DNA from: an uncultured Candidatus Saccharibacteria bacterium
GTDB lineage: Bacteria; Patescibacteriota; Saccharimonadia; Saccharimonadales; EFPC-124
DNA: 64,000 bases
Direction: 5' to 3'
NCBI GenBank assembly: GCA_964447105.1
Contig: CAYURH010000002.1
Location: 845 to 64,844 of the forward strand
In this document: positions 18,190 to 48,522 of the stretch, piece by piece
Layout of the letters: each line of letters opens with the position of its first letter
How positions within the stretch are numbered: the first letter of the stretch is position 1
Program-made: the position numbers and the translations under genes
The notes under the pieces: generated by a model
Databases searched by the model: none
What the model was told of the DNA's origin: nothing
The model's input: the letters and a program-made list of their open reading frames with translations, nothing else

Positions 18190-19950
18190 ATGCACAACTT
18201 ATTAACCATGTTGTACAATAGGCTCATGCTTAATGATACGCCGCCACGGCGCGTTGCTGGGGTAGGTCAGAGATCCACGTGGGATAACCTGGCTCACAGT
18301 GGTTTTACAGTTAGAGATGCCAACTACGGGTTGGTGTATACATTAAATATCTATGGGTTGCTTGGCATGCTTTCACTTGGCGTGTTTGGCGTCCTGCACA
18401 TTCTGGTCGAGCATAACCCACTAGTGGGATACACCGAAATCGCCGGGGCCTTGGGGCTTTTCCTCACCCTTGTGGGTGTGCGATTTACGAAAAATATCGT
18501 ACTGGGGCGCAATAGCTTTCTGCTCATCCTGCTTATTATGCTGATGGTCATGCTGGTAAGCGGCGGCACTGCTGGCACGGGCATATTTTGGTTTTTCATG
18601 TTCCCAGTGAGCGCTTTTTTGCTGACCAACAAAACACAGGGGTGGCTATGGATGAGCGCGTTGATCGCATCGATAATAGCGCTCGCTATACTACAGGCTT
18701 TGGATATGGGCGACCTGGCGTATGATGCGCTCACGATACGCCAGCTCGTTATCACGCTGATTATTGTGACGTTTGGCATATATTCATATCAATTGTCGCG
18801 CGAGCGATTGCAGCGCCAAACCGACCAAAGCCAGTACGCACTCAAAGAAGAAAAAACGCGCGCAGACACCATACTCGACAACATCGACATAGGGGTGGTA
18901 GCTATCGACACCACAGGCAAACTAATCGTAATCAACCAAGCCGCAGCCGAAATGCTGGGATGGCAGTCCAACGCTGTCATGGGTAAACTATTTACCGATG
19001 TCATGCCGCTTATCGACCACGAGGGGCGCGTGATCCCACTCGAAGATCGCCCACTTCACCAAGCGTTGAGTGGAAAGCGTACCGAGGCTACGCTGTCATA
19101 CAAACGCCACGACGGCAGCATATTCCCTGTGACTATGGTGTGTCGGCCGATTGTCGTAAATGGGCAAACCATAGGCGCTATCTGCGCATTCCGCGACGTC
19201 ACACAAGAGCAGGCAATCGATCATGCCAAAACCGAATTTGTTACCCTCGCGTCTCACCAACTACGCACACCACTGGCAGCTATTTCTTGGTACGGGGAAA
19301 TGCTCATCAACGGCGACGCTGGTAAGCTTACCGAAGATCAATCAACCTACGTACAACAAATTTATCAAAGCACGCAACGCTCGACCGCCATGGTAGAGGC
19401 TATGCTCACTGCATCTTCACTCGAGCTAGGTAACGTAAGCGTCAAACCAGAACCTACCGACATCGCCACTGTGCTTCACCAGGGTTTGCATGCGCTACTG
19501 GGCTCAGTTGGCGCAGGCAAAAAAATCAACATTGTGGAAGAGTACGACAAAACGCTGCAGCCCGTCCCACTTGACCTCAAGCTCACCCGCACCATCTTCC
19601 AAAACCTTATTGCTAACGCCATCAAATATACCCCCGAAGGCGGCACAGTTACACTCCGCGCCACGGCCAGCAACCAAGTATTACACACGGGCAGCGCCGG
19701 CAGCGTACTCATAGAAATCACCGACACCGGCTACGGTATCCCCAAGCGCGAACAGGCCAAAGTATTTAGTAGATTATTTCGCGCGGATAATGTGAAGAAA
19801 AAAGACACAGACGGCACTGGCTTAGGCTTATTTATCGTCAAGACGGCCCTGGAATACACTGGCGGCAGCGTGTCCTTTGTATCGAACGAAGGCAAAGGCA
19901 CTACCTTCTCGGTATACCTACCTGTCGAAGGTATGCGGAGACACTTCTGA
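18190..19950 (+). CDS. sensor histidine kinase (6-TM input, PAS, HisKA, HATPase_c)
   Basis: H-box SHQLRTPL; N, G1 and G2 boxes (NAIKYTP, DTGYGIP, GTGLGL); exact start uncertain. Confidence 0.9.
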   Translation: MHNLLTMLYNRLMLNDTPPRRVAGVGQRSTWDNLAHSGFTVRDANYGLVYTLNIYGLLGMLSLGVFGVLHILVEHNPLVGYTEIAGALGLFLTLVGVRFTKNIVLGRNSFLLILLIMLMVMLVSGGTAGTGIFWFFMFPVSAFLLTNKTQGWLWMSALIASIIALAILQALDMGDLAYDALTIRQLVITLIIVTFGIYSYQLSRERLQRQTDQSQYALKEEKTRADTILDNIDIGVVAIDTTGKLIVINQAAAEMLGWQSNAVMGKLFTDVMPLIDHEGRVIPLEDRPLHQALSGKRTEATLSYKRHDGSIFPVTMVCRPIVVNGQTIGAICAFRDVTQEQAIDHAKTEFVTLASHQLRTPLAAISWYGEMLINGDAGKLTEDQSTYVQQIYQSTQRSTAMVEAMLTASSLELGNVSVKPEPTDIATVLHQGLHALLGSVGAGKKINIVEEYDKTLQPVPLDLKLTRTIFQNLIANAIKYTPEGGTVTLRATASNQVLHTGSAGSVLIEITDTGYGIPKREQAKVFSRLFRADNVKKKDTDGTGLGLFIVKTALEYTGGSVSFVSNEGKGTTFSVYLPVEGMRRHF

Positions 19951-21815
19951 TGCGTGTGACGTTGCGTGTGCGAATTGTAATCACTTTTTTGGTGGTAACG
20001 GCCATAGTGGGTGGCGTTAGTTACTACCAAATTGCCTCAGTGAACACTATCAACAACACGTTTTTGGATCTTATCGATAACGACTTTGCACAAATTGACG
20101 CGCTCGAAAAAATCAAAATCTCGCTGGCCCGCATCGAAAACAAAGTCCAGCAACCCAATGCCAAAACCGAAGCTCTCGAGCTCACCAACGACATACAAGA
20201 TCACATTAAACTCCTGCGTGACCACTCGAGCACAGGACAGACAGCGGCTGTCGATCCAGTAACTGTTAACCAAATCAACGCCACCCTCGACGATGTCGTA
20301 AGACGCATCGATGACTTGTATGCCGTGACCGCCGCCACACAACTTTCAGCGCGACAAGCAGAGCTCACCAAGAGCCGAGCCCAACTCACCACCTTAGTCG
20401 ATGCCGCGCTCGATGAAGCTACCAAACGAGTCGCGCTTGAAAACGGCGAAGCTACAGCTATAGTCAACCAAACCGTCAACACCACGCGCCTCACAGCCAT
20501 ATTGGCAGCACTAACGGCGATATTGCTGGGCTTAATTGTTGCAGCTAGCATCTCACGCCGAGTAAAAAAACTTGGCCAGGCCGCACAGGCAATTGCCAAC
20601 GGTGATTTTTCGGAAACGATTACTATTGGCACCACTGACGAAATTGGCGATCTAGCACGAGCGTTTAATCAAATGTCAGCCCGACTGCGTGAATCCTATC
20701 GTCGCCTTGCCGTAGAAGCGCAACGCGACAGCGCCATGATGCAAAACATGGGCGAAGGTCTCATTGCCATCGACGACCAAGGCAATATAGTACTACTCAA
20801 CCACGTGGCCGCCACGCTGCTCGAAATTGACTCCAACGATGACGTGGGCGGTGCAAGCATCTACAACACCTTTCGCATCCTCGATCACGACAACAATGTC
20901 ATGCCCCCCGAACAAACACCCATGTATGCAGCGCTCGCACATGCCGCCAAAGTAAGCGACGTATTTAGTTTGCCACGCAAAGATGGCCGCAAAATTTTGG
21001 CCAACGTCAACGCCAGCCCGATCATTCTCGACCAAAAAGTGGTGGGTGCCGTGCTGGTGCTCCGTGACGTCACCAAAGAACGCGAAGTAGACCGCATGAA
21101 GACGGAGTTTATATCACTAGCTTCGCACCAGTTGCGGACACCGCTCAGCGCGATCAAATGGTTTAGTGAAATGCTCGCCTCAGGCGACGCCGGCAAACTA
21201 GGGGACGAACAAGCAGACTTTGTAAAAAATATTTCGGACTCGACCGAGCGTATGATCCAGTTGGTCAACGCACTGCTGAACATTTCGCGCATTGAATCCG
21301 GCCGTATTATGGTGACACCACAACCCACCGACCTGAAGGATCTGGTGTCGGGTATCGTCAATGACCTAAAAGGTAAAACGGCCGAAAAACAACAATCACT
21401 CGTCATCAGCGTCCATCAAGACTTGCCCAAAATCAGTCTCGACCCACGACTGATCGGCCAGGTATACCTGAATTTGCTTACCAACGCCATCAAATACACC
21501 CCGAAGGGTGGCGAAATATCAGTATTCATCTCCAAAAAAGATGACATGGCTATATCTCAAGTCTCCGACAACGGCTACGGCATCCCCAAAGAGCAGCAAG
21601 GCCGTGTGTTCCAGAAATTCTTCCGTGCCAGCAACGCGGTGCAAGTAGAAACGGATGGTACCGGCTTGGGACTGTATCTTATCAAATCCATTATCGAATC
21701 GTCCGGCGGCCAAATTTGGTTCGAGAGTGCAGAAGGTAAAGGTACGACATTTTGGTTTAGCATCCCTCTGAGTGGCATGAAAGCTAAAAAAGGCGAAGTA
21801 ACACTGGACATGTAA
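19950..21815 (+). CDS. sensor histidine kinase (2-TM periplasmic helical sensor, HAMP, PAS, HisKA, HATPase_c)
   Basis: H-box SHQLRTPL, NAIKYTP, DNGYGIP, GTGLGL; the start overlaps the upstream stop by 1 nt (tgATG). Confidence 0.9.
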   Translation: MRVTLRVRIVITFLVVTAIVGGVSYYQIASVNTINNTFLDLIDNDFAQIDALEKIKISLARIENKVQQPNAKTEALELTNDIQDHIKLLRDHSSTGQTAAVDPVTVNQINATLDDVVRRIDDLYAVTAATQLSARQAELTKSRAQLTTLVDAALDEATKRVALENGEATAIVNQTVNTTRLTAILAALTAILLGLIVAASISRRVKKLGQAAQAIANGDFSETITIGTTDEIGDLARAFNQMSARLRESYRRLAVEAQRDSAMMQNMGEGLIAIDDQGNIVLLNHVAATLLEIDSNDDVGGASIYNTFRILDHDNNVMPPEQTPMYAALAHAAKVSDVFSLPRKDGRKILANVNASPIILDQKVVGAVLVLRDVTKEREVDRMKTEFISLASHQLRTPLSAIKWFSEMLASGDAGKLGDEQADFVKNISDSTERMIQLVNALLNISRIESGRIMVTPQPTDLKDLVSGIVNDLKGKTAEKQQSLVISVHQDLPKISLDPRLIGQVYLNLLTNAIKYTPKGGEISVFISKKDDMAISQVSDNGYGIPKEQQGRVFQKFFRASNAVQVETDGTGLGLYLIKSIIESSGGQIWFESAEGKGTTFWFSIPLSGMKAKKGEVTLDM

Positions 21816-21899
21816 CGAGAGAGATGCTGTGAAACAGTTCATGAACATAATAAGAAAGGAACTTAGCTCGCCTAAGTAAACGCGTGCTAAAATAAAGCT

Positions 21900-22355
21900 A
21901 TGTCAAAAGCCAACCCCACAATCATGGTAGTCGAAGATGAGACCCTGCTTCTGCAGGCTATCACCAAAAAACTCAAACTTTCAGACATGGACGTGCTGTC
22001 GTGTTCCAGCGGCCAACAAGCAATTGATTATCTCAACAGCCTCGACGAACTACCCGATGCCGTGTGGCTGGACTACTACCTAAAAGACATGAACGGTCTT
22101 GCCTTCATGCAGCAGCTCAAAACCAATCCTAAGTGGTCTAACATTCCCGTGCTAGTGGTAAGCAACTCTGCCAGCCCTGACAAAGTACACAACATGCTCG
22201 GTTTGGGCGCACGCAAATATATATTAAAGGCCGAATACCGCCTCGATGAAATCATCGAAATCATCCACAGTTTCATAGAAGATGCCCAGGGTAGCGACGG
22301 GTCACATGGCGACGGCACCAACCCGGGCGTCCCGAATAACCAAAAGACGGAGTAG
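21900..22355 (+). CDS. stand-alone response-regulator receiver protein (CheY-like, no output domain)
   Basis: VEDE acidic pocket, phospho-acceptor context WLDYYL, conserved Ser/Thr (VVSN) and Lys (KYILK). Confidence 0.85.
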   Translation: MSKANPTIMVVEDETLLLQAITKKLKLSDMDVLSCSSGQQAIDYLNSLDELPDAVWLDYYLKDMNGLAFMQQLKTNPKWSNIPVLVVSNSASPDKVHNMLGLGARKYILKAEYRLDEIIEIIHSFIEDAQGSDGSHGDGTNPGVPNNQKTE

Positions 22356-22359
22356 AAGC

Positions 22360-22725
22360 ATGGCCGACACACCCAAAACAGTACTGATTGTCGAAGACGA
22401 GAAACCGCTTTCCCACGCCCTTGCGCTCAAGCTGCAACACGAAGGCATGACGGTGACTATTGCCAACAATGGTCAGGAATGCCTCGATCTGATCACCAGC
22501 AAAAACTTTGATGTCGTGCTACTCGACCTGATGATGCCCATCATGAACGGCTTCCAGGTACTCGAAGAGTTGCAAAAACGCCCACAAAAACCAGTTGTCT
22601 TTGTGCTATCCAACCTAAGCCAGCACGAAGACGAACAGCGCTCACTCAGCTTGGGTGCCCGTAAATTCTTTATCAAATCTGACACACCACTCACAACCAT
22701 TGTTGAAGAGGTGAAAGCCACGTAG
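22360..22725 (+). CDS. stand-alone response-regulator receiver protein (CheY-like, no output domain)
   Basis: start at MADTPKTVLIVEDE with a ggag SD; LLDLMMP acceptor context; VLSN and KFFIK. Confidence 0.85.
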   Translation: MADTPKTVLIVEDEKPLSHALALKLQHEGMTVTIANNGQECLDLITSKNFDVVLLDLMMPIMNGFQVLEELQKRPQKPVVFVLSNLSQHEDEQRSLSLGARKFFIKSDTPLTTIVEEVKAT

Positions 22726-22747: not shown

Positions 22748-24397
22748 ATGTATCCAAGTATCGATAAAATCAAAGCGATTCTGCTACAAGGTAGCTACTT
22801 GTCGGAAGCCGACAGTCAAGCTGCCGAGGCTGCGTCCAAAGACAGTGCTGAATACGTTGATTTTTTGATACGCCAAGAACTGCTCACCAAACAATTGCTC
22901 GGTCAAGCCCTGGCTGAAGGCTACAAAGTACCGTACGCCGATTTAAGTGCGCACCCGATCGGCAAAGACGAAGTAGCTCGCATACCAGAACAAGTAGCTC
23001 GCGCTAATCGCGCCGTATTCGTAAAAGAATCCGACAAAATTGCAGCCGTAGCTACCGACACGCCAGACAAAGTAGACATAAATGCACTCCAGGCATTATT
23101 CCCCAATCAAAAAGTTCGCTTGGCGTATGCTCTGCCCGAATTTATCGACGCCAGCCTCACGCTCTATGAGCAACCACTAGCCACCAAGTTTACGCAGATT
23201 ATTGGCGCGGGGCAGGGCATTGCACCAGCTATTGTAGATGCGATTTTGCGCGATGCACTGACGTATCGTGCGTCTGACATTCACTTTGAACCAGAAGCGA
23301 CCGAAGTAATCGTGCGATTCCGTGTAGACGGCAACTTGCGCGAAGCCGGCCGACTGCCCAAAGAATATTACGAAAACATCCTCAACCGCATCAAAGTCGA
23401 AAGCGGCATGCGCATCGACGAACACTTCTCGGCGCAAGACGGCGCTATCCAGCGTATTGTCGACAACAATCATATCGACCTACGCGCCTCACTCGTGCCC
23501 ACTGTGCAGGGCGAAAAAGTGGTGATGCGTGTGCTTGGCGCCTACGTGCAAGGCTATAGCTTGGCCGACATCGGCCTCAACGACGAACATCGCAAAATGC
23601 TCGAAACATACGCCGCCAAACCATTTGGCATGATCCTTACTGTAGGTCCCACCGGTTCTGGCAAAACCACCACACTGTATTCGCTCATCAAAATGTTGAA
23701 TAAACCCAATGTCAACATCACCAGCATCGAAGACCCCGTGGAATACAAAATCGCCGGCATCAACCAAATCCAAGTGCGCGAGCAAACCAACATGACATTC
23801 GCCAAAGGGCTGCGCTCTATTGTGCGCCAAGACCCCGACATCATACTGGTGGGTGAAATTCGCGACGAAGAAACCGCCGAAATCTCGGTGAACGCCGCGC
23901 TCACCGGCCACTTGCTCCTGAGCACATTCCACGCCAACGACGCCGCCACGGCCATACCGCGCTTGGCCGACATGGGTATTGAGCCATTCCTGTTGGCATC
24001 CACGCTAGAGGTCATCATCGCCCAACGGTTGGTTCGTCGTATCTGCACCCACTGTCGCTACAGCCTACCTACCATTGACGCGCTCAAAGACGTAAAAGGC
24101 GCCGCCAACATCGCTCACTATTTCACTGGCACCGACACACTCTACGCTGGCAAAGGCTGCAATGTCTGCGCCAACACGGGGTACACCGGCCGCTTGGCGC
24201 TGTTTGAATTTATCGAAATGACCCCCGAAATGCAGGACTTAGTCGCCAAATCCCAGACCACCCGCGACATCGAAGCTTTGGCGCGCAAACAAGGGAGCCT
24301 GCCTATGTTCGAAGATGGCATACTCAAAATAAAAAGCGGCCTAACCACCATGACTGAAGTGATGCGTGTGGTGCAGCCGCCCCGCGCCAAGGGGTAG
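22748..24397 (+). CDS. pilB: type IV pilus assembly ATPase (GspE/PilB family)
   Basis: Walker A GPTGSGKTT, Asp box, Walker B, His box (TGHLLLSTFH), tetracysteine CxxC...CxxC. Confidence 0.92.
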   Translation: MYPSIDKIKAILLQGSYLSEADSQAAEAASKDSAEYVDFLIRQELLTKQLLGQALAEGYKVPYADLSAHPIGKDEVARIPEQVARANRAVFVKESDKIAAVATDTPDKVDINALQALFPNQKVRLAYALPEFIDASLTLYEQPLATKFTQIIGAGQGIAPAIVDAILRDALTYRASDIHFEPEATEVIVRFRVDGNLREAGRLPKEYYENILNRIKVESGMRIDEHFSAQDGAIQRIVDNNHIDLRASLVPTVQGEKVVMRVLGAYVQGYSLADIGLNDEHRKMLETYAAKPFGMILTVGPTGSGKTTTLYSLIKMLNKPNVNITSIEDPVEYKIAGINQIQVREQTNMTFAKGLRSIVRQDPDIILVGEIRDEETAEISVNAALTGHLLLSTFHANDAATAIPRLADMGIEPFLLASTLEVIIAQRLVRRICTHCRYSLPTIDALKDVKGAANIAHYFTGTDTLYAGKGCNVCANTGYTGRLALFEFIEMTPEMQDLVAKSQTTRDIEALARKQGSLPMFEDGILKIKSGLTTMTEVMRVVQPPRAKG

Positions 24398-24400
24398 GGT

Positions 24401-25492
24401 ATGGCCAAAAAAAGCCAAAAACTCGACCAAGCCAAACACTACCACGTACGCGCCAAAGATCGTGAATATTTTACATCCAACCTCGCACTCTTGCTCAAAG
24501 CCTCTGTGGCAGTGGGGGACGGCCTGCAATCGCTCCGCGACGCTACCAAATCGCGCCCATTGCGACTGGCCATCGAACAAATGCAGCGCGATATCGATGA
24601 AGGCATGCCCCTATGGAAAGCGCTAGAGCGCAGTCGTATTGTATCCAACCAAACACTTGCGCTCGTCCACCTTGGGGAAGAATCGGGCAACTTGGCCGAA
24701 AACCTGCACGTCGCCGCCCTGCAAGAAGAAAAGCAGCATATGTTCCGCGCCAAAGTGCGCTCGGCACTGTTGTACCCAGTGTTTGTGCTATCGCTCACGG
24801 TGATTGTGGGGTTGGGCGTGGCGTGGTTCCTGTTGCCGCGTATGGCCGAAACATTTACGCATCTGGGTGTGGCGTTGCCGCTGATCTCGGTGATATTTAT
24901 CAATTTTGGATTGTTTCTGCAAAGCGACGGATGGTGGGCAGTCCCCGTGGCGATAGGTATCATTGGCGTGCTGGGCTATATTTTGTTTGCCGCACCCAAA
25001 ACCAAAGGGATCGGTCAGCAACTACTGTTCCACGTGCCAGGTGTATCGAGGTTGTTGCATGAGATAGAGATTGCCCGATTCGGATATTTGTTTGGCACAT
25101 TGCTCGATGCTGGGCTGAACGTGACGGACGCTTTGAGACTATTGCATGACGCCACGAGCTCGGCGGCCTACCAAAAATTCTACCTGCATTTAGCGAGCGG
25201 TCTGGAAGAAGGTTATAGCTTCCGCGTCAGCTTGCCAGCCTACAAAAACGCCGCCAAACTCATACCGCCCGCCGTGCAGCAAATGGTGATTGCCGGGGAG
25301 CGGTCGGGCGCCCTGCCTGAAACATTGCAAAACGTGGGCGAAATCTACGAAGAAAAAGCCGACATTTCCACGCAAAACCTCGAAGCCATATTAGAACCGA
25401 TACTCCTCGTGATCGTCTGGCTAGGTGTGTTGGGCGTCGCAGTCGCCGTGATTTTGCCGATCTATAGCTTGGTTGGCGGGCTGGGGACGTAG
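24401..25492 (+). CDS. pilC: type IV pilus platform protein (GspF/PilC family)
   Basis: duplicated GspF-type repeat with 3 TM segments; 3 nt after pilB. Confidence 0.9.
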   Translation: MAKKSQKLDQAKHYHVRAKDREYFTSNLALLLKASVAVGDGLQSLRDATKSRPLRLAIEQMQRDIDEGMPLWKALERSRIVSNQTLALVHLGEESGNLAENLHVAALQEEKQHMFRAKVRSALLYPVFVLSLTVIVGLGVAWFLLPRMAETFTHLGVALPLISVIFINFGLFLQSDGWWAVPVAIGIIGVLGYILFAAPKTKGIGQQLLFHVPGVSRLLHEIEIARFGYLFGTLLDAGLNVTDALRLLHDATSSAAYQKFYLHLASGLEEGYSFRVSLPAYKNAAKLIPPAVQQMVIAGERSGALPETLQNVGEIYEEKADISTQNLEAILEPILLVIVWLGVLGVAVAVILPIYSLVGGLGT

Positions 25493-25496
25493 CATC

Positions 25497-25934
25497 ATGC
25501 AGCGCCAGCGCGGCTTTAGCTTGGTGGAGATGCTTTTGTCGGTAAGTATCATTGCCATGCTTGTGGGCATCACGGCGCCACTCTACGTGGGGTTTGTGGC
25601 GCGCAATGATTTGGACATAGCCGCGCAAAATGCAGCCGGCGCATTGCGCCGCGCCCAGACGTTTGCCCGTGGCCAAAACGGTGACAGCCAGTGGGGCGTC
25701 GCCATTGCATCAAGCCAAATCGTACTCTACAAAGGCACCAGCTACGCCGCCCGCGACACCACATATGACGAAGCTATAAGTATCCCCAGCAGTATTACCC
25801 CCAGCGGGCTAACCGAAGTTAATTTCGCCAAACTCAGCGCCACGCCCAGCACTACTGGCAGCATTACTCTTACCTCGACTACAACTAAAGTAAGAACGGT
25901 GACTATCAATGCCAAGGGCATGGTCGACTATTAA
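25497..25934 (+). CDS. minor pilin / pseudopilin (prepilin-type N-terminal domain)
   Basis: MQRQRG|FSLVEMLLSVSIIAML: class III signal peptide with Gly-1 and Glu+5. Confidence 0.75.
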   Translation: MQRQRGFSLVEMLLSVSIIAMLVGITAPLYVGFVARNDLDIAAQNAAGALRRAQTFARGQNGDSQWGVAIASSQIVLYKGTSYAARDTTYDEAISIPSSITPSGLTEVNFAKLSATPSTTGSITLTSTTTKVRTVTINAKGMVDY

Positions 25935-27606
25935 CCGTCAGGCTGGGTTTTCGCCCGTCGAGATACTGCTCGCAGCCACCGTATTTGGCATGCTGGTTAC
26001 TGCGCTCATGGGTGCGATTATTTTTGCCAGATCATCTACGGCCACAGCCGGCGAACGTGAACGAGCCAACATGATTGCCGAAGAAGGCTTGGAAGCCGTG
26101 CGTAACATCCGCGATAGCTCGTTTAGCAGCGTCACAGGCACGTTTGGTTTGGCCAAAGCGGGCAATATTTGGACTATATCCGGCACGTCCGACACCACGG
26201 GCATCTTTACCCGCCAAATAGTAGTGACGGCGGTTGATAGCGTACGCAAAAACATCGTCGTTACCGTTACCTGGCCGCAAGCCGCACTCACCAACCAGGT
26301 AGTGGTAACTGGCCGTTACACCAACTGGCAAGCATCGATCGCACCGACAGTGACCCCTGGCCCCATCATGATGGCTTATTCCAAAACCACCACTATACCG
26401 TATTACCGCATCTGGAATAGCACTACCTCTACGTGGGGCGCTGAGGCAGCGGCACAAACTGTGGTAGGCAACATCAACTACATCGTGCTCAAAAGCTCTC
26501 GCACGCGCAACGAAGCTATCATGGGCGTCCAGACATCCACTGGCGCTATCTACATCCAGACTTGGAACGGCACAACGTGGAGTAACCTAACACAGGTGGG
26601 CACCGGCACCACCACTACGCGCAGTTTCGACCTGGCTTACCAGAAAAACAGCGACAATGCACTTATCGTGTACAGCCCTACGTCGAGCTCGGCCGATTTT
26701 GCATATCGCACATGGAATGGCACGACGCTCAGTAGTGCAACCACCATCACTGATCCGCCCAGCACGGGCGTTATCAACTGGATAGAAATGAAACAAAACC
26801 CACTCAGCGCGAGCAACGACATCGCCATGATGATGATGGACGCGAGCACCGCTGTGTACGGTATGATCTGGACCGGAAGCGGCTGGAACAATATGGGTGT
26901 CACGGGCGTCTGGGATTCCACCGGTACTGCCGCCGCCAAAAAAGGCATCGATGTCGACTACGAGCAGCTCACTGGTCGCGCCATGTTCCTATGGGGCGAT
27001 TCGACCGCCACTGACCAGTATTACCGCATCTGGGATGGTGCCACATTGGCGGCGGCTACACTGCTCGACATCCCGGCCGAAGGTGGCGCATCAGAGTGGG
27101 TGCAGTTGGCGGCACGGCCGAATTCTAACGAAATCATGCTAGGCGTACAAGACTCCGCCACCAACCTAAACACGCGTAAATGGTCGGGGAGCGCATGGGA
27201 CACGGCAACGCAACACGCCGAGCACGATGCTTCGCTCGAAAACGCGCTATCGCGCAACTTTGACATTGTATGGGAGACGGCTACTGCCAACGCCGGCAAG
27301 GCCTGGCTGCTTTGGGGCGATGGCGCTACGGTCACTCAGCGACAGTGGTCGGGTACAGCTTGGGGGACGGCCACCGTGATGAGCGGTAGTGACGACACAT
27401 CATTTATCCGATTGCGTGCCGACGCAGCGTCAGGCGCGGTGTTCGCCGGTATTTACCAAAACATCACCTCTGCGGCTGGTGCTCGAGATATTGGTGAACG
27501 CCACCTCACAGGAGGCGGCGCCACGTGGACCGCCAAAACGGTCATGTGGGCCGGCTCGACAACCGCTGAACCGGTAACATTTAAGATAGATATTGCCACG
27601 CCATGA
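25909..27606 (+). CDS. large pilin-like protein: prepilin N-terminus, pilin-fold domain and 7-8 repeats of about 50 aa (predicted beta-propeller)
   Basis: leader ...NRQAG|FSPVEILLAATVFGML; Trp-centred repeats at residues 169, 219, 269, 321, 375, 425 and 480. Confidence 0.75.
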   Translation: MPRAWSTINRQAGFSPVEILLAATVFGMLVTALMGAIIFARSSTATAGERERANMIAEEGLEAVRNIRDSSFSSVTGTFGLAKAGNIWTISGTSDTTGIFTRQIVVTAVDSVRKNIVVTVTWPQAALTNQVVVTGRYTNWQASIAPTVTPGPIMMAYSKTTTIPYYRIWNSTTSTWGAEAAAQTVVGNINYIVLKSSRTRNEAIMGVQTSTGAIYIQTWNGTTWSNLTQVGTGTTTTRSFDLAYQKNSDNALIVYSPTSSSADFAYRTWNGTTLSSATTITDPPSTGVINWIEMKQNPLSASNDIAMMMMDASTAVYGMIWTGSGWNNMGVTGVWDSTGTAAAKKGIDVDYEQLTGRAMFLWGDSTATDQYYRIWDGATLAAATLLDIPAEGGASEWVQLAARPNSNEIMLGVQDSATNLNTRKWSGSAWDTATQHAEHDASLENALSRNFDIVWETATANAGKAWLLWGDGATVTQRQWSGTAWGTATVMSGSDDTSFIRLRADAASGAVFAGIYQNITSAAGARDIGERHLTGGGATWTAKTVMWAGSTTAEPVTFKIDIATP

Positions 27607-28124
27607 ACAGCCCTGTAGCCCACACCCACCAAAGCGGTTTCACACTCATCGAGTTGCTCATGTACACACTCATTGTAGGCACACTGCTCACAGGCATAAG
27701 CGTCTTCTTCGGCATGGCCGCTGACGCGCGTATCAAAAACCAAAGCGTCGCCGAAGTCGACCAACAGGGGTTGTTTGCTATGGAGTACATGACCGGCACT
27801 ATCCGCAACGCCAGTAGTATTACATCGCCAGCGCTGGGTGCGAGTGGCGCCAGCCTTACGTTAGTGGTACCTACCGGGTCTCTGAGCCCTACCATTTTTG
27901 ACCTAAGCAGCAACGTCCTCCGCGTCAAAGAAGGCGCAGCCGCAGTGGTGCCACTCACCAGTGGTGACGTGCAGATCACCAGCCTGACATTCAACAATTT
28001 GTCGCGTAGCAGCACGCTAGAGGTGGTGCAGATTATTATGACAATCGCCCACACCAATACTGCCGGTCGCAACGAATATGATTATCAAAAAACATTCACC
28101 ACATCGGTAACATTACGGCAATGA
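27603..28124 (+). CDS. minor pilin / pseudopilin (prepilin-type N-terminal domain)
   Basis: ...HTHQSG|FTLIELLMYTLIVG; the start overlaps the upstream stop (ATGA). Confidence 0.75.
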   Translation: MNSPVAHTHQSGFTLIELLMYTLIVGTLLTGISVFFGMAADARIKNQSVAEVDQQGLFAMEYMTGTIRNASSITSPALGASGASLTLVVPTGSLSPTIFDLSSNVLRVKEGAAAVVPLTSGDVQITSLTFNNLSRSSTLEVVQIIMTIAHTNTAGRNEYDYQKTFTTSVTLRQ

Positions 28125-28516
28125 TAGGGTATAGAAACGATTCCGGTTACGTGGCGCTTCTCTCAGTTCTGATTGTCGGCGCTGTGGCGCTGGCGATAGG
28201 CGTGGCTATGCTGGTGAGCGGCACCGACAGCCAACGTGAAGTATTGGTCGCCCAGCAGAGCACACAAGCGCGGAACTTAGCAACCGCCTGTGGCGAAGAG
28301 GGCCTGCAACAAATTCACGACAACACTGCTTTCACCGGCACCAACAACATAACGCTCGGTCAAGGTACGTGTACATACACCGTTGCCAACACCGGCGCAT
28401 CGACACGCACGGTTGATGCCACAGGTACAGTAAATGGTGTTGTAAGACGCATAAAAATCTATGTTACAATTAACGTATCAAGCTTAAGTATTACATCCTG
28501 GCAAGATGTACTCTAA
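28121..28516 (+). CDS. minor pilin-like protein (PilX/GspK-type hydrophobic N-terminal helix)
   Basis: N-terminal GYVALLSVLIVGAVALAIG; ATGA overlap with the upstream gene; no canonical G|FxxxE. Confidence 0.55.
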   Translation: MIGYRNDSGYVALLSVLIVGAVALAIGVAMLVSGTDSQREVLVAQQSTQARNLATACGEEGLQQIHDNTAFTGTNNITLGQGTCTYTVANTGASTRTVDATGTVNGVVRRIKIYVTINVSSLSITSWQDVL

Positions 28517-28544: not shown

Positions 28545-29009
28545 ATGCAATTAGCACAAAATATTAAAAAACAAGCGGGCTTCACACTACTCGAAGTCCT
28601 ATTAGTGGTAGCAATCATAGCTATCTTGGCGGGCATCGTAATCATTGCCATCAATCCTACCAAGCAATTAGGCGACTCACGCAACTCTCAACGGTCGGCG
28701 GATGTGACGACCATACTGAATGCGATCTACCAATATTCACTCGACAACAACGGTACCCTCCCTGGCAGCATCACTACCACAGCAACTGAGATCTGTGCCA
28801 CCGGCGCCCCAAGTTGCACCAGCTTGATCGACCTCACCGTGCTAACCACGGCTGAAAAATATCTCACATCGGTTCCCAAAGACCCACAGTGCAGTAGCGT
28901 CTGCGCCACCAACGGTACAGGTTACAAAGTTTTGAAGACCGCCAATAGCCGCATTACCGTAAACGCACCATACGCCGAGCAAAGCAAAACAATTTCAGTA
29001 ACCCGCTAA
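28545..29009 (+). CDS. pilA: type IV major pilin (copy 1)
   Basis: [12 protein letters not shown]|[20 protein letters not shown]; 4 conserved Cys; SD aagggtgag. Confidence 0.85.
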
Positions 29010-30500: not shown

Positions 30501-30974
30501 ATGCAACTTCTCAAAAAAGTACATTCTTCACAGAAAGGCTTCACACTACTCGAAGTTCTGTTAGTGGTAGCGATCATAGCTATTTTGGCAGGTATTGTGA
30601 TTATCGCTATCAATCCTACTAAGCAGTTGGGTGATTCGCGAAACTCACAGCGTTCGGCTGATGTGACGACCATATTGAATGCTGTGTATCAGTATTCGCT
30701 CGACAATAATGGTTCGCTACCGAGCACCATCACCGCAAGCGCTACCGAAATTTGTAACACAACAGGCGCCGGCTGCGCATCGCCGACAGCTATCGACTTG
30801 GGCGTGCTGACGACCAGCGAAAAATACCTAACGTCGATTCCAAAAGACCCTCAGTGCCCGAGTGTCTGCATTGCTAACGGCGCCGGATACATGATTGTTA
30901 AAACTACCAACAACCGCGTGACCGTGAGTGCGCCAGATGCCGAACAAGGCAAAACTATTTCAGTAACTCGATAA
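30501..30974 (+). CDS. pilA: type IV major pilin (copy 2, paralog of 28545..29009)
   Basis: ...SSQKG|[20 protein letters not shown]; about 63 N-terminal residues nearly identical to copy 1; same 4 Cys. Confidence 0.85.
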
Positions 30975-40739: not shown

Positions 40740-41861
40740 ATGACGAAAGCTAAGATTAAAGAATTCTTTTCAAACAACAGACAGCGCAATAATCTGATTA
40801 TCGCCGCTGGCTTTGCCGTATTGCTGGTGGGCGTACTGATGTTCGCCACACTCACTATGGCTGGCGGTTTTTTTGCGGCGACCGAACCAGAAAACGGCAC
40901 ACGCACAGGCAACGCGCAGTTAGTGGCAGACGGCAGCGCATCAGGCGGATCGGCCGTCCAGTTTACGGCGCCTGCAGCACCACCGCCCCCGCCGTCAAAC
41001 GGTTGCGCGAGCAACGTCAGCGGATCATCGCCAGCATGCACGCTGCTGCCGCCCGCACCATTGCCAGCGGGCAAGCACTGGAACGTCAGTTTTTCCGAAG
41101 AATTTAATGGCAGTGACTACGACCACAGCAAACTTACACCATGTTTCGACTGGAATTATGGCGGTTGCACCAGCTCATTCAACCAAGGACGCGAGCATTA
41201 CGATCCGTCGCAAGTAGTAGTAGGTAGTGGCACCGCCAAACTAATTGCCGCGCCGTTGTCGCCAGCATATGCATCAACTGCATGCCAGACCAACTCATGC
41301 ACGTACAAAGCCGGTCTACTTTCGACAGCACGACCAAACGCCGGCAACGGATCGGATTATACATATAAGTTTACCTATGGTTATATAGAATCTAGTTTTA
41401 AATTTCCAGCTACACAAGGATTCTTTACCGCATTTTGGATGCTACCGGCGAACCCAAGCTACGACTATGGCACCGAGATCGACATCCTAGAAGTACTGGG
41501 CAACGACCCCAAAAGCATGTTTATGCACTACCACTACGGGACAGATCGCACCACATCATATTCTCCCAACAATGACTCGCTACTATACAACGGTGCTTGC
41601 GCCGTCAAAGACTACTCGCAAAACTTTGTACGCATGGGTGTAGACTGGCAGCCCGACCACATCGCCTGGTATATCGACGGTGTGAAGTGCGGCCAGTTTA
41701 GCAACGCCAGCCAGATAGAATCCGGCCCTATGCAGCTTATCCTGCACATGATGGTGGACAACAACTGGCAGCGATCCTGGGGTGTTGGCCTGAAAGAATC
41801 CGACGCCAACCTGACTCGTCAACTCGAAGTTGATTACATCCGTGTATATCAACTGCAGTAA
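40740..41861 (+). CDS. secreted glycoside hydrolase family 16 (beta-glucanase-like) with a signal anchor, shared N-module and poly-Pro linker
   Basis: GH16 catalytic motif EIDILE (GTEIDILEVLG); N-terminal TM; FFAATEPENGT...ASGGSAVQF; PPPPPS. Confidence 0.8.
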   Translation: MTKAKIKEFFSNNRQRNNLIIAAGFAVLLVGVLMFATLTMAGGFFAATEPENGTRTGNAQLVADGSASGGSAVQFTAPAAPPPPPSNGCASNVSGSSPACTLLPPAPLPAGKHWNVSFSEEFNGSDYDHSKLTPCFDWNYGGCTSSFNQGREHYDPSQVVVGSGTAKLIAAPLSPAYASTACQTNSCTYKAGLLSTARPNAGNGSDYTYKFTYGYIESSFKFPATQGFFTAFWMLPANPSYDYGTEIDILEVLGNDPKSMFMHYHYGTDRTTSYSPNNDSLLYNGACAVKDYSQNFVRMGVDWQPDHIAWYIDGVKCGQFSNASQIESGPMQLILHMMVDNNWQRSWGVGLKESDANLTRQLEVDYIRVYQLQ

Positions 41862-45005: not shown

Positions 45006-46091
45006 ATGAAGACAGCTCGCTGGATCCTCACTTTAATCGTTATCGTAGCCATTGTTGCACCCGCAATGGTATTTCGGTTTTTACCAACGCCCGACAACCT
45101 GCCGACTGACGCTCAAGAATATCGGATCGCCACTACCGCAGTAGTTTTGTTTGCCTGGCTACATATTGGTTCAGTTTTGCTTTTCCTTGCGGGCCTACAA
45201 GGATTCAAAGAGGAATTCAGAAGGGCATATAAAGCCATCTGTCTGGGGCTAGCACTGTACGGCATCAGCCTATTGCAGTTTCCGATTATCGCAGCATTAA
45301 ATTTATGGCAAAGTGCATGGTCGACCAACGGGGGCAAAGCGATACCGCTTATTGCCGCAAATATCATGCTCTTTATTGGCTTGCGTCTATTCGCAAAACA
45401 GCTAAATATACAGAGCTGGACACAGTCTTTTTGGCTTCTTGCAATTGCGCCCGTGGCAGCTGCACTATTTAGCCTACTAGCAGAAGACGCACGGCGGCTA
45501 GAATTTGTAGCCGACGTCCTTTGCCTTGGTCTTGCGGTTATCTGTGCACCTTTGGTGTGGCAGATATTGCGCGCAACGGGTAAAGCTTACAAAAACTCAC
45601 TCCGTTGGTTGGCTATTGTGCTAACGGTCAATATTGTTGCCCAGTTTCTGCCGCCGCTCATTATTGCGCTTAGAGCCACGGAGGGTGCCTACATAACATT
45701 GCCTTTTGCGATAGCCGGGATAGTAAGTGTCGTTGCCGGGTATAGCTTCACCAAGATCGGCATATCTTTGACCATGGAGGAGTCATCGGAAGCAGGCAAT
45801 GCAAAAGCACTTAACCTGCTCATATATCTGGCTTCTCTGGCTTCAAGTCCAAAAGCTATTGACCCCATCATGGACAATGTCCGTTTTATTACGGCTCGAT
45901 CCTCGGTGGATGCGCCGCTTTCGGAAAACGATCAGAAGCAGCTGGTTGTTGTCTATAATCGTCTAATAGCCTACTTGATCAATCAAGACCCGTTACGAGT
46001 GTACGACAAGCCCTTGCTTGACAGAAAAATCCGCAAAAAATTTCAGCACACCGATCCCGCTGAAGCAGTTTTTTGGAACAGTATCGCCTAG
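45006..46091 (+). CDS. polytopic membrane protein MP1 (8 TM, then a C-terminal soluble helical module)
   Basis: paralog of 47431 and 56127, with the soluble module at the opposite end. Confidence 0.75.
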   Translation: MKTARWILTLIVIVAIVAPAMVFRFLPTPDNLPTDAQEYRIATTAVVLFAWLHIGSVLLFLAGLQGFKEEFRRAYKAICLGLALYGISLLQFPIIAALNLWQSAWSTNGGKAIPLIAANIMLFIGLRLFAKQLNIQSWTQSFWLLAIAPVAAALFSLLAEDARRLEFVADVLCLGLAVICAPLVWQILRATGKAYKNSLRWLAIVLTVNIVAQFLPPLIIALRATEGAYITLPFAIAGIVSVVAGYSFTKIGISLTMEESSEAGNAKALNLLIYLASLASSPKAIDPIMDNVRFITARSSVDAPLSENDQKQLVVVYNRLIAYLINQDPLRVYDKPLLDRKIRKKFQHTDPAEAVFWNSIA

Positions 46092-46220
46092 GTTTATCTA
46101 ATGTCTGCGCCGCACCTTCTGGTATGTCATGCTTGTAATAGTGAAAGGCACGAGGATCATTGACTCCTTGCGCGGATTGCCGCACTATAAGCATAAAGGT
46201 AAACGAGCGCATATTTTGCT

Positions 46221-47426
46221 ATGGTACATAAAAATAAATTGCAAAGCGAATCCAGGCAGGGAAAGATAGCTACATTTTGGCGTGCATCCAAAGTAAATAA
46301 GCTGGCAGCATTTGGCATAGTATTTATTGTCGCCGTGATAGGTGTGGCTGTGGCATTCGTAAGCGCATCGGGCTTTTTTGCGGCCAACGAGCCGGAGCAG
46401 GGCACTCGCACGGCGAACGCCCAGTTGGTTACTGACGCCAGCGCATCTGGCGGTCAAGCCATTCAATTTACCGCACCAACCGCGCCTCCGCCTCCGCCAC
46501 CAACAGGTAGCTGTGCAGTAAGCACATCGCACGTGCCCGATGGCCCAGACGGTATGGGTGGGTGCTGGCCAGGGCCAAGCAACACCGGGCCCAATGCAGC
46601 CGAATCGACCATGGCTACCTATACCGGCTCGTGCAATATCACGACCACGAATGCTGTCATTGACTCCAAAGTTATTAACTGTTCGCCGCTGGTCGTCAGT
46701 GCCCCTGGTCTGGTGGTCAAAAACTCATATCTCAAAGGTGGCGTAGGTCGCGGCGACGACACCATACCATTCACCATCCAAGACTCACTGCTCGACAACA
46801 ACACGTCTACCGGATACGCCTGCGGCGACCCCAACAACACCACAACTGATTGTGGCGTTACCGGTAGCAACTTTACCATTTTGCGTACAGAGATCATGCA
46901 CACCAATCGTGCAGCATATTGCCAAGACAACTGCACCATCAAAGATAGTTACTTCCACGGTACAAACCTGCAGCCGATTGCTTCCAACCTGGCGCACGCA
47001 TCATCGGTACGCAACGAGCAAAATCTCACGCTCAATCACAACACTATAGCCTGCGACTATACCGGACCATTTCCCAATGGTGAAATTGGTTGTTCGGCCG
47101 ACATGTCAGGATACCCTGACTTTACGCCGATTAGAAACGACACGATTATCAAAAACTTGTTCATGTCTAACAATGCGGGTATTGCATTTTGTGCGTACGG
47201 TGGCGGCACAGCTGGCAAGCCTTTTAGTAGTGATCCCACCAACGCCACTAACATAGTATTCGAAAACAACATCTTTCAGCGCGGCGCAAATGGCAAGTGT
47301 GGCGCAAATGGCCCCATAACTGATTACATAAATGGTCGCAGCGGCAATTCATGGTGCAACAACAAATACGACAATGGCACCCTGATCAATTCCACTTGGA
47401 CCTGCCTGAATAAAACATCGATATAG
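46221..47426 (+). CDS. secreted Cys-rich beta-helix-like protein (paralog 2) with the shared N-module
   Basis: FFAANEPEQGT...ASGGQAIQF, PPPPPPT, then CAVSTSHVPDGPDGMGGCWPGPSNTG aligned with paralogs 1 and 3. Confidence 0.75.
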   Translation: MVHKNKLQSESRQGKIATFWRASKVNKLAAFGIVFIVAVIGVAVAFVSASGFFAANEPEQGTRTANAQLVTDASASGGQAIQFTAPTAPPPPPPTGSCAVSTSHVPDGPDGMGGCWPGPSNTGPNAAESTMATYTGSCNITTTNAVIDSKVINCSPLVVSAPGLVVKNSYLKGGVGRGDDTIPFTIQDSLLDNNTSTGYACGDPNNTTTDCGVTGSNFTILRTEIMHTNRAAYCQDNCTIKDSYFHGTNLQPIASNLAHASSVRNEQNLTLNHNTIACDYTGPFPNGEIGCSADMSGYPDFTPIRNDTIIKNLFMSNNAGIAFCAYGGGTAGKPFSSDPTNATNIVFENNIFQRGANGKCGANGPITDYINGRSGNSWCNNKYDNGTLINSTWTCLNKTSI

Positions 47427-47430
47427 GCCT

Positions 47431-48522
47431 ATGCAGCCCCAAGCAGCCACCAAACAGCTCCCCGTAAGTCAGCAGGACAACCAGCTCATTGCACGGATTG
47501 TTCAGTTAGCCAAACTAGGTTCCGACCCCAATGCCATCGACCCTTTGCTCGACGTACTGCGCACCACGACGGCCACGCGCGAAGAGGGAGCGCCCCTGCA
47601 GAGCCAAGATCGCACCCGCTTGCAAGGTATTGAGAAAAAACTCCGCGCCTATTTAGTCACACAGGACCCGCTGCGACGTTTTACGCCCGAGAGCTTGGAG
47701 GCTTATCTGCAAGTCGACAGTCAACCGGTAACGGTGGGTATCAACCGTGATTTAATCACCACCCTGGTTGCGGCAGTATGCATGCCACTACTGGCGTTGG
47801 CGTTGCCGTTGTTTTCGGCTTTCCCTTTACAAAAAAGTCTTTTGTTAACCATCCCATTATTTTTGGTAGTATTACATATTGACATTGCGTGGCTCTACAT
47901 TTCGGCGCTAACCCATTTTAAACCAGAGTTTAAACGTGCTTTCTTTTTTGTATGCGTAGGTATTTTACTATTCAGCGTGGCGTTTTCGCACTATGTCCTT
48001 ATTGAATTATTAGAACTGGGTCAGGCCGAGTTATTCCGCTATGGCGGGCTGACTCTGCTCGATGCCAGCTGTTATTTCTTTATGTATATTGGGCTCCGGC
48101 AATACGCACAGTTGCTTGGTATTAAAAGTTTTGCTGTGTCGTGGCCAAAGGTAACGTTAATTGCGCTTGGGCTCAGTCTGGTGGCAATTGTAATTCCACA
48201 CACTGGCCAGCGGCCGTTCGAACCATATTTTGACGTAAGCTTGATTGGCATATGGTTGTTTAGTATGTTCTTGGCGCTCAATGCAGTGGTATCAAGCCAA
48301 ATCGTCAAAAGCGTTACGCCAGCCTACGCCAGATCGCTTCGCTGGCTGCGGATTTATTTTATTGCGGCCTGGATAGGGTCGCTGGGTTCGGCGTTTGGCC
48401 TGCCAATTGTTGGGCAGCTGAACGGTGGATTTTTATATGTTCTGATTGCCATTTTAGGCATCATACCGCAGTTATTGCTGCTGTACACGGGTTATTTGTT
48501 TAAAAAAGAAACTAGTACGTAA
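47431..48522 (+). CDS. polytopic membrane protein MP2 (N-terminal soluble helical module, then 8 TM)
   Basis: starts 4 nt after the beta-helix 2 stop; module ...IDPLLDVLRTTTA...YLVTQDPLRRF. Confidence 0.75.
   Translation: MQPQAATKQLPVSQQDNQLIARIVQLAKLGSDPNAIDPLLDVLRTTTATREEGAPLQSQDRTRLQGIEKKLRAYLVTQDPLRRFTPESLEAYLQVDSQPVTVGINRDLITTLVAAVCMPLLALALPLFSAFPLQKSLLLTIPLFLVVLHIDIAWLYISALTHFKPEFKRAFFFVCVGILLFSVAFSHYVLIELLELGQAELFRYGGLTLLDASCYFFMYIGLRQYAQLLGIKSFAVSWPKVTLIALGLSLVAIVIPHTGQRPFEPYFDVSLIGIWLFSMFLALNAVVSSQIVKSVTPAYARSLRWLRIYFIAAWIGSLGSAFGLPIVGQLNGGFLYVLIAILGIIPQLLLLYTGYLFKKETST

Follow-up and report, generated by a model that had tools for sequence, protein, structure and literature searches.

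A modular type IV minor pilin carrying a predicted propeller of an uncatalogued family in the core pilus operon of an uncultured Saccharibacteria bacterium

The stretch of DNA analyzed in this study, hereafter the window, comprises 64,000 nucleotides (nt) of contig CAYURH010000002.1 (positions 845 to 64,844 of the forward strand; GenBank assembly GCA_964447105.1) from an uncultured Candidatus Saccharibacteria bacterium. It contains a core type IV pilus operon, the second minor-pilin gene of which encodes a protein of 565 amino acids (aa). We found that this protein is a real modular minor pilin, in which a small pilin module is joined to a propeller of an uncatalogued family, and that the spread of this family is wider and its conservation stronger than expected. 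While modular, tip-presented pilins are already established as a concept, the propeller family is what is new here.

How Patescibacteria, for which the name Candidate Phyla Radiation (CPR) is also used, find and hold their hosts is largely unknown, though no surface machine of theirs is better conserved than the type IV pilus. To date, a single propeller pilin has been tied to host binding, namely PilX2, which is of the RCC1 type and belongs to an accessory pilus of oral Saccharibacteria. The window gene represents a second, unrelated propeller family, which is located in the core pilus operon and is common to several CPR phyla. The 565-aa protein is probably a modular type IV minor pilin of this operon whose propeller serves as a ligand-binding head at the pilus tip.

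Architecture of the 565-aa protein

The gene and its parts are as follows, with the source of each assignment in brackets.

25909-27606, + strand: whole gene, 565-aa modular minor pilin consisting of a pilin module and a predicted eight-bladed propeller (translation of the open reading frame (ORF), AlphaFold2)
25909-25947, + strand: class III (prepilin) leader, residues 1-13, the last being Gly13, with predicted cleavage G↓FSPVE (sequence)
25948-26106, + strand: alpha1 helix of the pilin module, residues 14-66, with a hydrophobic N-terminal half and Glu5 of the mature protein (AlphaFold2, DSSP helix 16-66)
26107-26343, + strand: beta-sheet head of the pilin module, residues 67-145 (AlphaFold2 strands 77-138)
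26356-26469, + strand: predicted blade 1, strands B-D, residues 150-187, YYRIW169-N-S-TTSTW176 (AlphaFold2, stacked alignment)
26470-26622, + strand: predicted blade 2, residues 188-238, W219-N-G-T-T-W224 (AlphaFold2, blade profiles)
26623-26769, + strand: predicted blade 3, residues 239-287, FDLAY ... YRTW269-N-G (AlphaFold2, blade profiles)
26770-26943, + strand: predicted blade 4, residues 288-345, W321-T-G-S-G-W326 (AlphaFold2, blade profiles)
26944-27087, + strand: predicted blade 5, residues 346-393, IDVDYE ... YRIW375-D-G (AlphaFold2, blade profiles)
27088-27255, + strand: predicted blade 6, residues 394-449, W425-S-G-S-A-W430, then the conserved H436-x-E-H439 ... E444 (AlphaFold2, domain alignment)
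27256-27399, + strand: predicted blade 7, residues 450-497, FDIVWE ... W480-S-G-T-A-W485 (AlphaFold2, blade profiles)
27400-27582, + strand: predicted blade 8, residues 498-558, degenerate, with the first motif Trp gone and W540 retained (AlphaFold2, blade profiles)
27583-27603, + strand: C-terminal strand, residues 559-565, K-I-D-I-A-T-P (DSSP strand 560-563)

Direct reading of the translation showed the leader MPRAWSTINRQAG↓FSPVE, with the sequence …NRQAG↓FSPVEILLAATVFGMLVTALMGAII around the predicted cleavage site. It displays the characteristics of class III signal peptides, i.e., Gly at position -1, a hydrophobic residue at +1, Glu at +5 and subsequently about 20 hydrophobic residues. Among 62 homologues, Gly-1 is present in 60, Phe+1 in 59 and Glu+5 in 61, and G13, F14, S15 and E18 are each conserved in 58-61. 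The prepilin leader NRQAG↓FSPVE described in the initial annotation was thus confirmed, with the reservation that the N_methyl match discussed below is sub-threshold.

Using an alignment of 62 sequences as input, AlphaFold2 predicted the full-length protein with a mean predicted local distance difference test (pLDDT) score of 86.7 and a predicted template modeling (pTM) score of 0.73, with pLDDT values above 90 over most of the propeller; the pilin module by itself gave a pLDDT of 83.9. The predicted long N-terminal alpha1 helix and the antiparallel beta-sheet correspond to the pilin fold (pLDDT 83.9-86.7), in agreement with the pilin-like domain of about 140 aa that had been proposed. The linker of about 10 residues between the two modules (approximately 141-152) is less confident, with a pLDDT of 61 at residues 141-150. 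Both the layout of this model and the occurrence of the propeller without a pilin part in other proteins identify the protein as a modular pilin.

The segment at 26371-27588, on which the initial annotation focused, corresponds to residues 155-560, i.e., the repeat region of the protein. Trp residues are located exactly at the positions reported (169, 219, 269, 321, 375, 425, and 480), and all seven repeat strings quoted with them were found. Eight copies of the motif W[NSDT][GS][TSA] are present in the protein, whereas 20,000 shuffles of it contained 0.48 copies on average and never more than 4, and stacking of eight units of approximately 52 aa aligns the motif as well as the strands ahead of it. 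As a non-circular test of the blades, one hidden Markov model (HMM) per blade was built from the 62 homologues and scored on the other blades. Blades 3 and 5 recognized each other at approximately 30 bits, and matches were also obtained for the pairs 2/6 and 4/6 (10.9-20.7 bits, depending on the direction), 2/4 (10.7-15.6 bits) and 6/7 (12-14 bits); no cross-match with other blades was seen for blade 8. Odd-numbered blades follow the pattern F-D-[LIV]-x-Y-E … Y-R-x-W-x-G and even-numbered blades the pattern W-[IV]-x-L … P-x-S-N-E-I … W-x-G-x-x-W, and with these two alternating blade types the propeller looks like four copies of a two-blade unit. Across 58 diverse blades, and likewise across 55 diverse whole domains, the W-x-G element and the second Trp vary little or not at all.

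In the AlphaFold2 model, DSSP assigned 28 strands of at least three residues and 4 short ones to residues 154-563, and we read these 32 strands as eight predicted four-stranded blades in a propeller of 416 aa. The probable beta-propeller of the initial annotation was thereby recovered as a confident prediction for the C-terminal part of the protein, and its estimate of seven to eight blades would resolve to eight, the last of which is degenerate in sequence. Blade 1 begins at its second strand, and the last strand of the protein (residues 560-563, K-I-D-I), in which D561 is kept in at least 90% of the homologues, resembles the first strands of odd-numbered blades (F-D-L-A-Y, I-D-V-D-Y, and F-D-I-V-W). 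For these two reasons, the C-terminal strand would complete blade 1 as a 'velcro' closure, a closure of the ring that we infer from the DSSP strings and sequence logic.

Foldseek, run with the model against the PDB, returned 196 matches at E ≤ 0.001. The top matches were the propeller lectins PLL, PLL2/3/5, PHL, and BP39L (E from 1.6e-8, target-normalized template modeling (TM) score of at most 0.69), next came the fucose lectins AAL, AFL, AOL, and RSL, and then sialidases (NanB, NanC, NEU1), sortilin, and WD40-type proteins. At the level of sequence, no significant Pfam match was obtained for the propeller, the best one being the Rax2 propeller with an E-value of 0.01, under its cut-off, and there was no match in NCBIfam. 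Searches of PDB sequences with the protein (phmmer), the family profile or a profile of 58 blades detected no significant relative of the propeller, and none of these three queries recovered a lectin chain at E ≤ 10.

One segment, QHAEHDASLEN (H-x-E-H … E-N; residues 436-445; 27214-27243, + strand), is present in blade 6 only. Among 55 diverse domains that are 25-62% identical to the query, H439 is conserved in 85% and E444 in 89%, and the segment may be a site for a metal or ligand that occurs once and so breaks the eightfold symmetry. The propeller as a whole is acidic (pI 4.8; 35 D+E vs 25 K+R), for which reason a DNA-binding competence pilin was considered unlikely.

Position in the pilus operon, conservation and spread of the propeller

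The genes that surround the 565-aa gene are listed below.

18190-22725, + strand: two PAS histidine kinases plus two receiver-only response regulators, immediately upstream of the PilB gene (domains, synteny)
22748-24397, + strand: PilB-type assembly ATPase with T2SSE and MshEN domains (Pfam)
24401-25492, + strand: PilC-type platform protein with two T2SSF domains (Pfam)
25473-25934, + strand: minor pilin of 153 aa whose GspH/FimU-like matches are weak, gene 1 of the four-gene minor-pilin set (Pfam, NCBIfam)
27603-28124, + strand: minor pilin of 173 aa with a canonical GFTLIE leader, third of the set (Pfam, NCBIfam)
28121-28516, + strand: pilin-like protein of 131 aa (…SGYVALLSVLIVG…) that lacks Glu5 and weakly matches GspK, last of the four (ORF, NCBIfam)
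28545-29009, + strand: probable major pilin of 154 aa, with GspG as best (sub-threshold) NCBIfam match (Pfam, NCBIfam, cross-locus comparison)

Five pilin-like genes with overlapping stops and starts thus follow the PilB and PilC genes, and the 565-aa gene, as the second of them, shares 26 nt with the pilin gene upstream of it and 4 nt (ATGA) with the one downstream. This arrangement corresponds to a core minor-pilin set (H-I-J-K) with the major pilin behind it; both the gene order and the Glu5-less fourth gene agree with the GspH-I-J-K/FimU-PilV-W-X arrangement. Of the two kinases upstream of PilB, one carries a HAMP domain and one a sub-threshold MASE6 match. A second major-pilin-like gene (157 aa, GspG-like, canonical leader; 30501-30974, + strand) is located downstream, beyond a phosphofructokinase gene, and this paralogue replaces the 154-aa pilin in some related loci.

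Full-length matches to the 565-aa protein were obtained for more than 400 proteins, with identities of 62-72% among the at least 120 matches listed. The named full-length relatives are proteins of Saccharibacteria/Saccharimonadales metagenome-assembled genomes (MAGs) or bear the name 'PilV' in the annotation of the Joint Genome Institute (JGI). A scan of one genome per species yielded 23 loci. The loci of other phyla were retrieved with two propeller peptides as probes, and this sample favours well-conserved propellers. Loci labelled Woesebacteria, Moraniibacteriota, Daviesbacteria, and Amesbacteria encode proteins with 48-53% full-length identity to the 565-aa protein, and in these as well as in Saccharibacteria, and thus in at least five CPR lineages, the order PilB, PilC, pilin, propeller pilin, pilin, pilin, major pilin is kept. 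The conserved order often includes the histidine kinases and regulators; as these genes accompany the pilus operon in several CPR phyla, they suggest that a sensory input is dedicated to the pilus.

In seven cross-phylum loci, the propeller shares 55-63% identity with that of the window, compared with 43-54% for PilB, 28-46% for PilC, 26-44% for the pilin module of the 565-aa protein itself, and 24-62% for the other pilins. The propeller is thereby more conserved than the PilB ATPase in six of these loci and about equally conserved in the seventh. A similar gradient was found within the protein among 62 Saccharimonadales homologues, where column entropy averages 0.72 in the propeller, against 0.93 in alpha1 and 1.41 in the pilin beta-sheet, and where only two short patches of the propeller (residues 256-262 and 486-492) are variable. 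Of all parts of the operon, the propeller is the best conserved in the recovered loci. Its conservation suggests a single common ligand or partner and, together with the small number of variable patches, argues against host-specific recognition. Even with a sample that favours conserved propellers, the pattern is the reverse of that expected of a host-range determinant.

Two of the loci carry labels from outside the CPR. One labelled Gammaproteobacteria (L016) contains a complete CPR-type operon with identical gene order, and one labelled Ignavibacteriaceae (L023) gave a propeller-family match only (59% identity), within an ORF of approximately 1,126 aa on a contig of 3.9 kb; either label might stem from mis-binning or horizontal transfer.

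Seven homologues of 716-732 aa (P0071, P0081, P0085, P0090, P0096, P0100, and P0109) possess, besides the propeller, an insert of approximately 155 aa within the pilin module, directly after alpha1 (…FANLV-[insert]-…). Fusion with the upstream pilin was rejected as an explanation, since the extra residues sit inside the pilin module. The insert of P0071 gave no Pfam match, and these homologues would be three-module pilins.

A HMMER scan with residues 145-565 defined a domain family without a Pfam or NCBIfam model that comprises at least 1,498 clusters at 50% identity (E ≤ 0.001), 231 of them below 1e-30, and the proteins of which are now labelled 'hypothetical' or 'PilV'. Four architecture groups carry the domain: canonical pilins, PilX/MshP-like proteins of approximately 640 aa, archaeal class III proteins, and giant or multi-domain proteins.

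The N-termini of the second group, such as …QRGFLLIVAVVLI…, are without Glu5. Some of these proteins have a PilX_N match or the JGI names 'PilX' or 'MshP' and the others are unnamed or 'hypothetical', and their NCBI labels include Betaproteobacteria, Nitrospirota/Nitrospiraceae, Deltaproteobacteria, and Candidatus Muproteobacteria. They belong to the same propeller family, being 38-48% identical to one another and 25-62% identical to the window propeller, and are encoded last in minor-pilin clusters beside PilN and secretin genes. They differ in having a PilX/GspK-like N-terminal module without Glu5 and a diderm host with a secretin. On a betaproteobacterial contig, the 642-aa protein is preceded by three small genes, two of which have weak N_methyl matches, and is followed on its 3' side by a gene that weakly matches PilN, then by secretin, AAA and TPR genes; on a Nitrospiraceae contig, the counterpart closes a cluster that starts with three small genes, two with N_methyl matches. 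From these minor-pilin contexts it follows that the propeller has repeatedly been joined to a pilin-type N-terminus in unrelated lineages.

Archaeal-style class III signal peptides precede the propeller in a group of proteins, of which one comes from a Bathyarchaeota MAG and another is named 'flagellin-like'. The domain is furthermore found alongside CBM96, Laminin_G_3, fn3, or Big_13 domains, and HMMER matched 15, 16, and 7 stretches in the giant proteins P0123 (6719 aa), P0125 (7926 aa), and P0126 (2681 aa), respectively, the N-termini of which are signal-peptide-like, not pilin-like.

Proposed role and rival explanations

In the mechanism that we propose, prepilin peptidase would cleave the 565-aa protein after Gly13, and the cleaved protein would join the three other minor pilins in an assembly-priming complex and so come to lie at the pilus tip. 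A tip position is proposed because the bulky 45-kDa head cannot pack into the shaft, and the propeller would form the distal cap because the fourth, GspK-like pilin comprises only 131 aa. At this position the propeller might act as a multivalent ligand-binding head with repeated sites, most likely as a lectin that grips the envelope of another cell via the paired Trp of each blade. This idea is based on analogy with PHL and PLL, which have inter-blade sites with two Trp, as described for the fucose sites of PHL (PMC5584973). Since the propeller is the slowest-evolving part of the operon, a host-specific receptor is not expected as its ligand, which should instead be an envelope component shared widely or a conserved partner.

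Besides the composition of the cross-phylum sample, several observations weigh against this reading. The match of the protein to the Pfam family N_methyl (PF07963) is sub-threshold, with 12.5 bits at a cut-off of 21.2; TIGR02532 was not reported for it in the NCBIfam scan, though it was reported for three neighbouring pilins; and position +3 is occupied by Pro, the family consensus, unlike the usual Leu/Thr. The NCBIfam PilV match (E = 0.012) is far under the cut-off, and a fold search for the GspI/PilV assignment with the model of the isolated pilin module gave no significant PDB match, EpsI being found at rank 10 (Foldseek, E = 0.4). Genes for prepilin peptidase (peptidase A24), PilT, and PilM were not found within the window. 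Orphan full-length copies are present in three Saccharimonadales genomes (L008:7959-9659, L009:7971-9656, and L018:7953-9650), with no PilB, PilC or minor-pilin neighbours within approximately 8 kb. Finally, the resemblance of the modelled propeller to lectins is one of fold only, with no sequence relationship, and the conserved Trp residues could constitute a structural girdle instead of binding sites. Eight-bladed pyrroloquinoline quinone (PQQ) enzymes have such a Trp-docking girdle.

In the main rival explanation, the protein would be a structural cap or an assembly-priming factor, with a propeller that mainly contacts conserved components of its own pilus, namely the other minor pilins and the machinery, and not an external ligand, and that controls initiation, the balance between extension and retraction, or mechanosensing, as described for PilY1. 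Conservation at or above the level of PilB would fit this explanation, as would the near absence of variable surface patches, which is expected of a part that co-evolves with conserved partners, the overlap with both adjacent pilin genes, and the pairs of histidine kinases and response regulators that are syntenic with the operon in several phyla. However, the presence of up to 15-16 copies of the domain in giant non-pilin surface proteins and its position beside CBM96, Laminin_G_3, fn3, and Big_13 are better explained by a generic extracellular binding module, and the orphan copies lie away from pilus genes, so that we regard this explanation as unlikely.

The initial annotation had proposed a candidate host-recognition tip. 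A tip of this kind, with a repeat region that would differ from host to host and define the host range, is not supported and is now improbable: although a tip position is plausible and PilX2 contributes to host binding in TM7x, no part of the protein varies less than the propeller across the 62 Saccharimonadales homologues, with its two short variable patches, and its identity remains at 55-63% across CPR phyla that are unlikely to have common hosts.

Archaeal 'bindosome' sugar-binding proteins are the model for a further explanation, in which the protein would be anchored to the surface by its class III signal peptide, outside the filament, and would capture nutrients for an auxotrophic cell. 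The archaeal class III proteins bearing the same propeller and the orphan copies outside pilus operons are consistent with it. Yet it is quite improbable for a gene that is kept across phyla in the second of four minor-pilin positions, between PilB-PilC and the major pilin and with overlapping neighbours, and whose product has Glu5, a residue linked to filament assembly, in 61 of the 62 homologues.

A catalytic propeller, for instance a sialidase-like glycosidase that cuts host envelope polymers from the pilus, is very improbable, for while the sialidases NanB, NanC, and NEU1 are among the Foldseek matches, E202, D241, E245, E352, E444, D452, and E456 are each at least 85% conserved across the diverse family and blade 6 has its H-x-E-H segment, no glycosidase or BNR/Asp-box family was matched at E ≤ 1, lectins outscore enzymes in the fold search, and the conserved acidic residues recur at one blade position (Y-E of odd-numbered blades), which points to a structural or repeated-site role and away from a single active centre.

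Going beyond the tip-head reading that we prefer for the window protein, the eight-bladed W-x-G-x-x-W propeller may tentatively be regarded as an undescribed, signature-less binding domain that provides a common 'grip' of type IV filaments and recognizes one shared envelope component, a generalization that we put forward with considerable doubt. If true, this grip would be common to ultrasmall host-dependent prokaryotes and beyond. Independent fusions would have placed it on PilV-position pilins in CPR, on PilX/MshP-like pilins in diderms, and on archaeal pilin-type signal peptides, and it would have been multiplied in the giant proteins; one shared envelope ligand would also explain a propeller that evolves more slowly than the pilus motor.

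Comparison with known systems and further features of the window

Two pili have been described in TM7x (Nanosynbacter lyticus) (Grossman et al., bioRxiv 2024 / ISME J 2025; PMC11623550, PMC12206443). PilX2, a minor pilin of the accessory thin pilus, was described as a 'heptabladed beta-propeller with RCC1 repeats' with a PLL-lectin-like model, and its deletion halved host binding, with filament extrusion continuing; PilX1 of the essential thick pilus has a jelly-roll-like domain (PMC11623550, PMC12206443). TM7x-type pilX2 loci were recovered from metagenomes with a published primer sequence. One of these (L026:1188-5170) contains five successive pilin genes encoding 163, 155, 275, 576, and 141 aa, which fits the published locus three, in which PilX2 is encoded immediately upstream of a small major pilin.

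PilX2 resembles the window protein in being a minor pilin of Saccharibacteria, in its size (576 aa in this locus) and in its C-terminal beta-propeller. However, PilX2 is without Glu5 (GYSLVLIV) and is encoded in a pilin-only accessory-pilus locus, whereas the window protein possesses Glu5 and is encoded beside PilB and PilC. The 576-aa PilX2 matched Pfam RCC1 (8e-45) and RCC1_2 (3e-39), no RCC1 match was found in Pfam for the window protein, and an hhalign comparison of the window family with TM7x-type PilX2 gave a probability of 1.8%, confined to the N-terminal helix. Orthology with PilX2, an RCC1 propeller unrelated in sequence, was therefore rejected, and the window protein is a second, independent propeller graft on a Saccharibacteria pilin, in a locus with its own PilB and PilC. 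With its PilB, PilC, and five pilins, the neighbourhood in the window resembles TM7x locus one only in outline.

The PilY1/PilC tip adhesins of Pseudomonas and Neisseria present a propeller at the pilus tip via a minor-pilin complex and function in adhesion and in the control of pilus dynamics (PMC8179133, PMC11623550). While PilY1 is a non-pilin that associates non-covalently, the window protein is itself the pilin. A PilY1 propeller was not matched in Pfam at E ≤ 1, PilY1 chains were not found in the PDB profile search, and none was among the top 50 fold matches. Homology to PilY1 or to known propeller lectins was accordingly rejected at the sequence level (phmmer, family-profile, and 58-blade-profile searches of PDB sequences). 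The analogy with PilY1 drawn in the initial annotation is one of function and does not extend to membership in the same family, a relationship being undetectable in these searches.

Modular type IV pilins present adhesive modules at the pilus tip, and PilB and PilC of S. sanguinis, with a vWA and a lectin module, respectively, are such proteins (Raynaud et al., 2021; PMC8179133). The window protein likewise consists of a small pilin module, a short linker and a bulky module. Many modular pilins have been overlooked, as their modules are without a database signature (PMC8179133), and the window protein would escape an InterPro-based census in the same manner, its N_methyl motif and its module both being below the signature threshold.

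The closest folds are those of the seven-bladed lectins PLL/PHL/BP39L and the six-bladed lectins AAL/AFL/RSL (E from 1.6e-8 to approximately 1e-6, TM score normalized to the target 0.5-0.69), and the PLL/PHL and AAL/RSL types are built from four-stranded 'W-motif' blades of about 50 aa. These lectins are soluble and have seven or six blades, whereas the window protein is a pilin with eight predicted blades and showed no sequence similarity to them with the whole-domain or single-blade profiles. With the Asp-box of BNR propellers (S-x-D-x-G-x-T-W), the window repeat shares only the G-x-x-W half; no BNR family matched the protein in Pfam at E ≤ 1, and sialidases and sortilin were found as fold matches only.

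An Rfam scan of the window yielded no matches. Elsewhere in the window, three successive ORFs of 361, 401, and 363 aa (45006-48522, + strand) are without a Pfam match at E ≤ 1e-4. Two probable surface proteins were also observed, one with a GH16 domain (40740-41861, + strand) and one of 557 aa with an Ig-like He_PIG domain (51631-53304, - strand); He_PIG is among the extra domains listed for modular pilins (PMC8179133).

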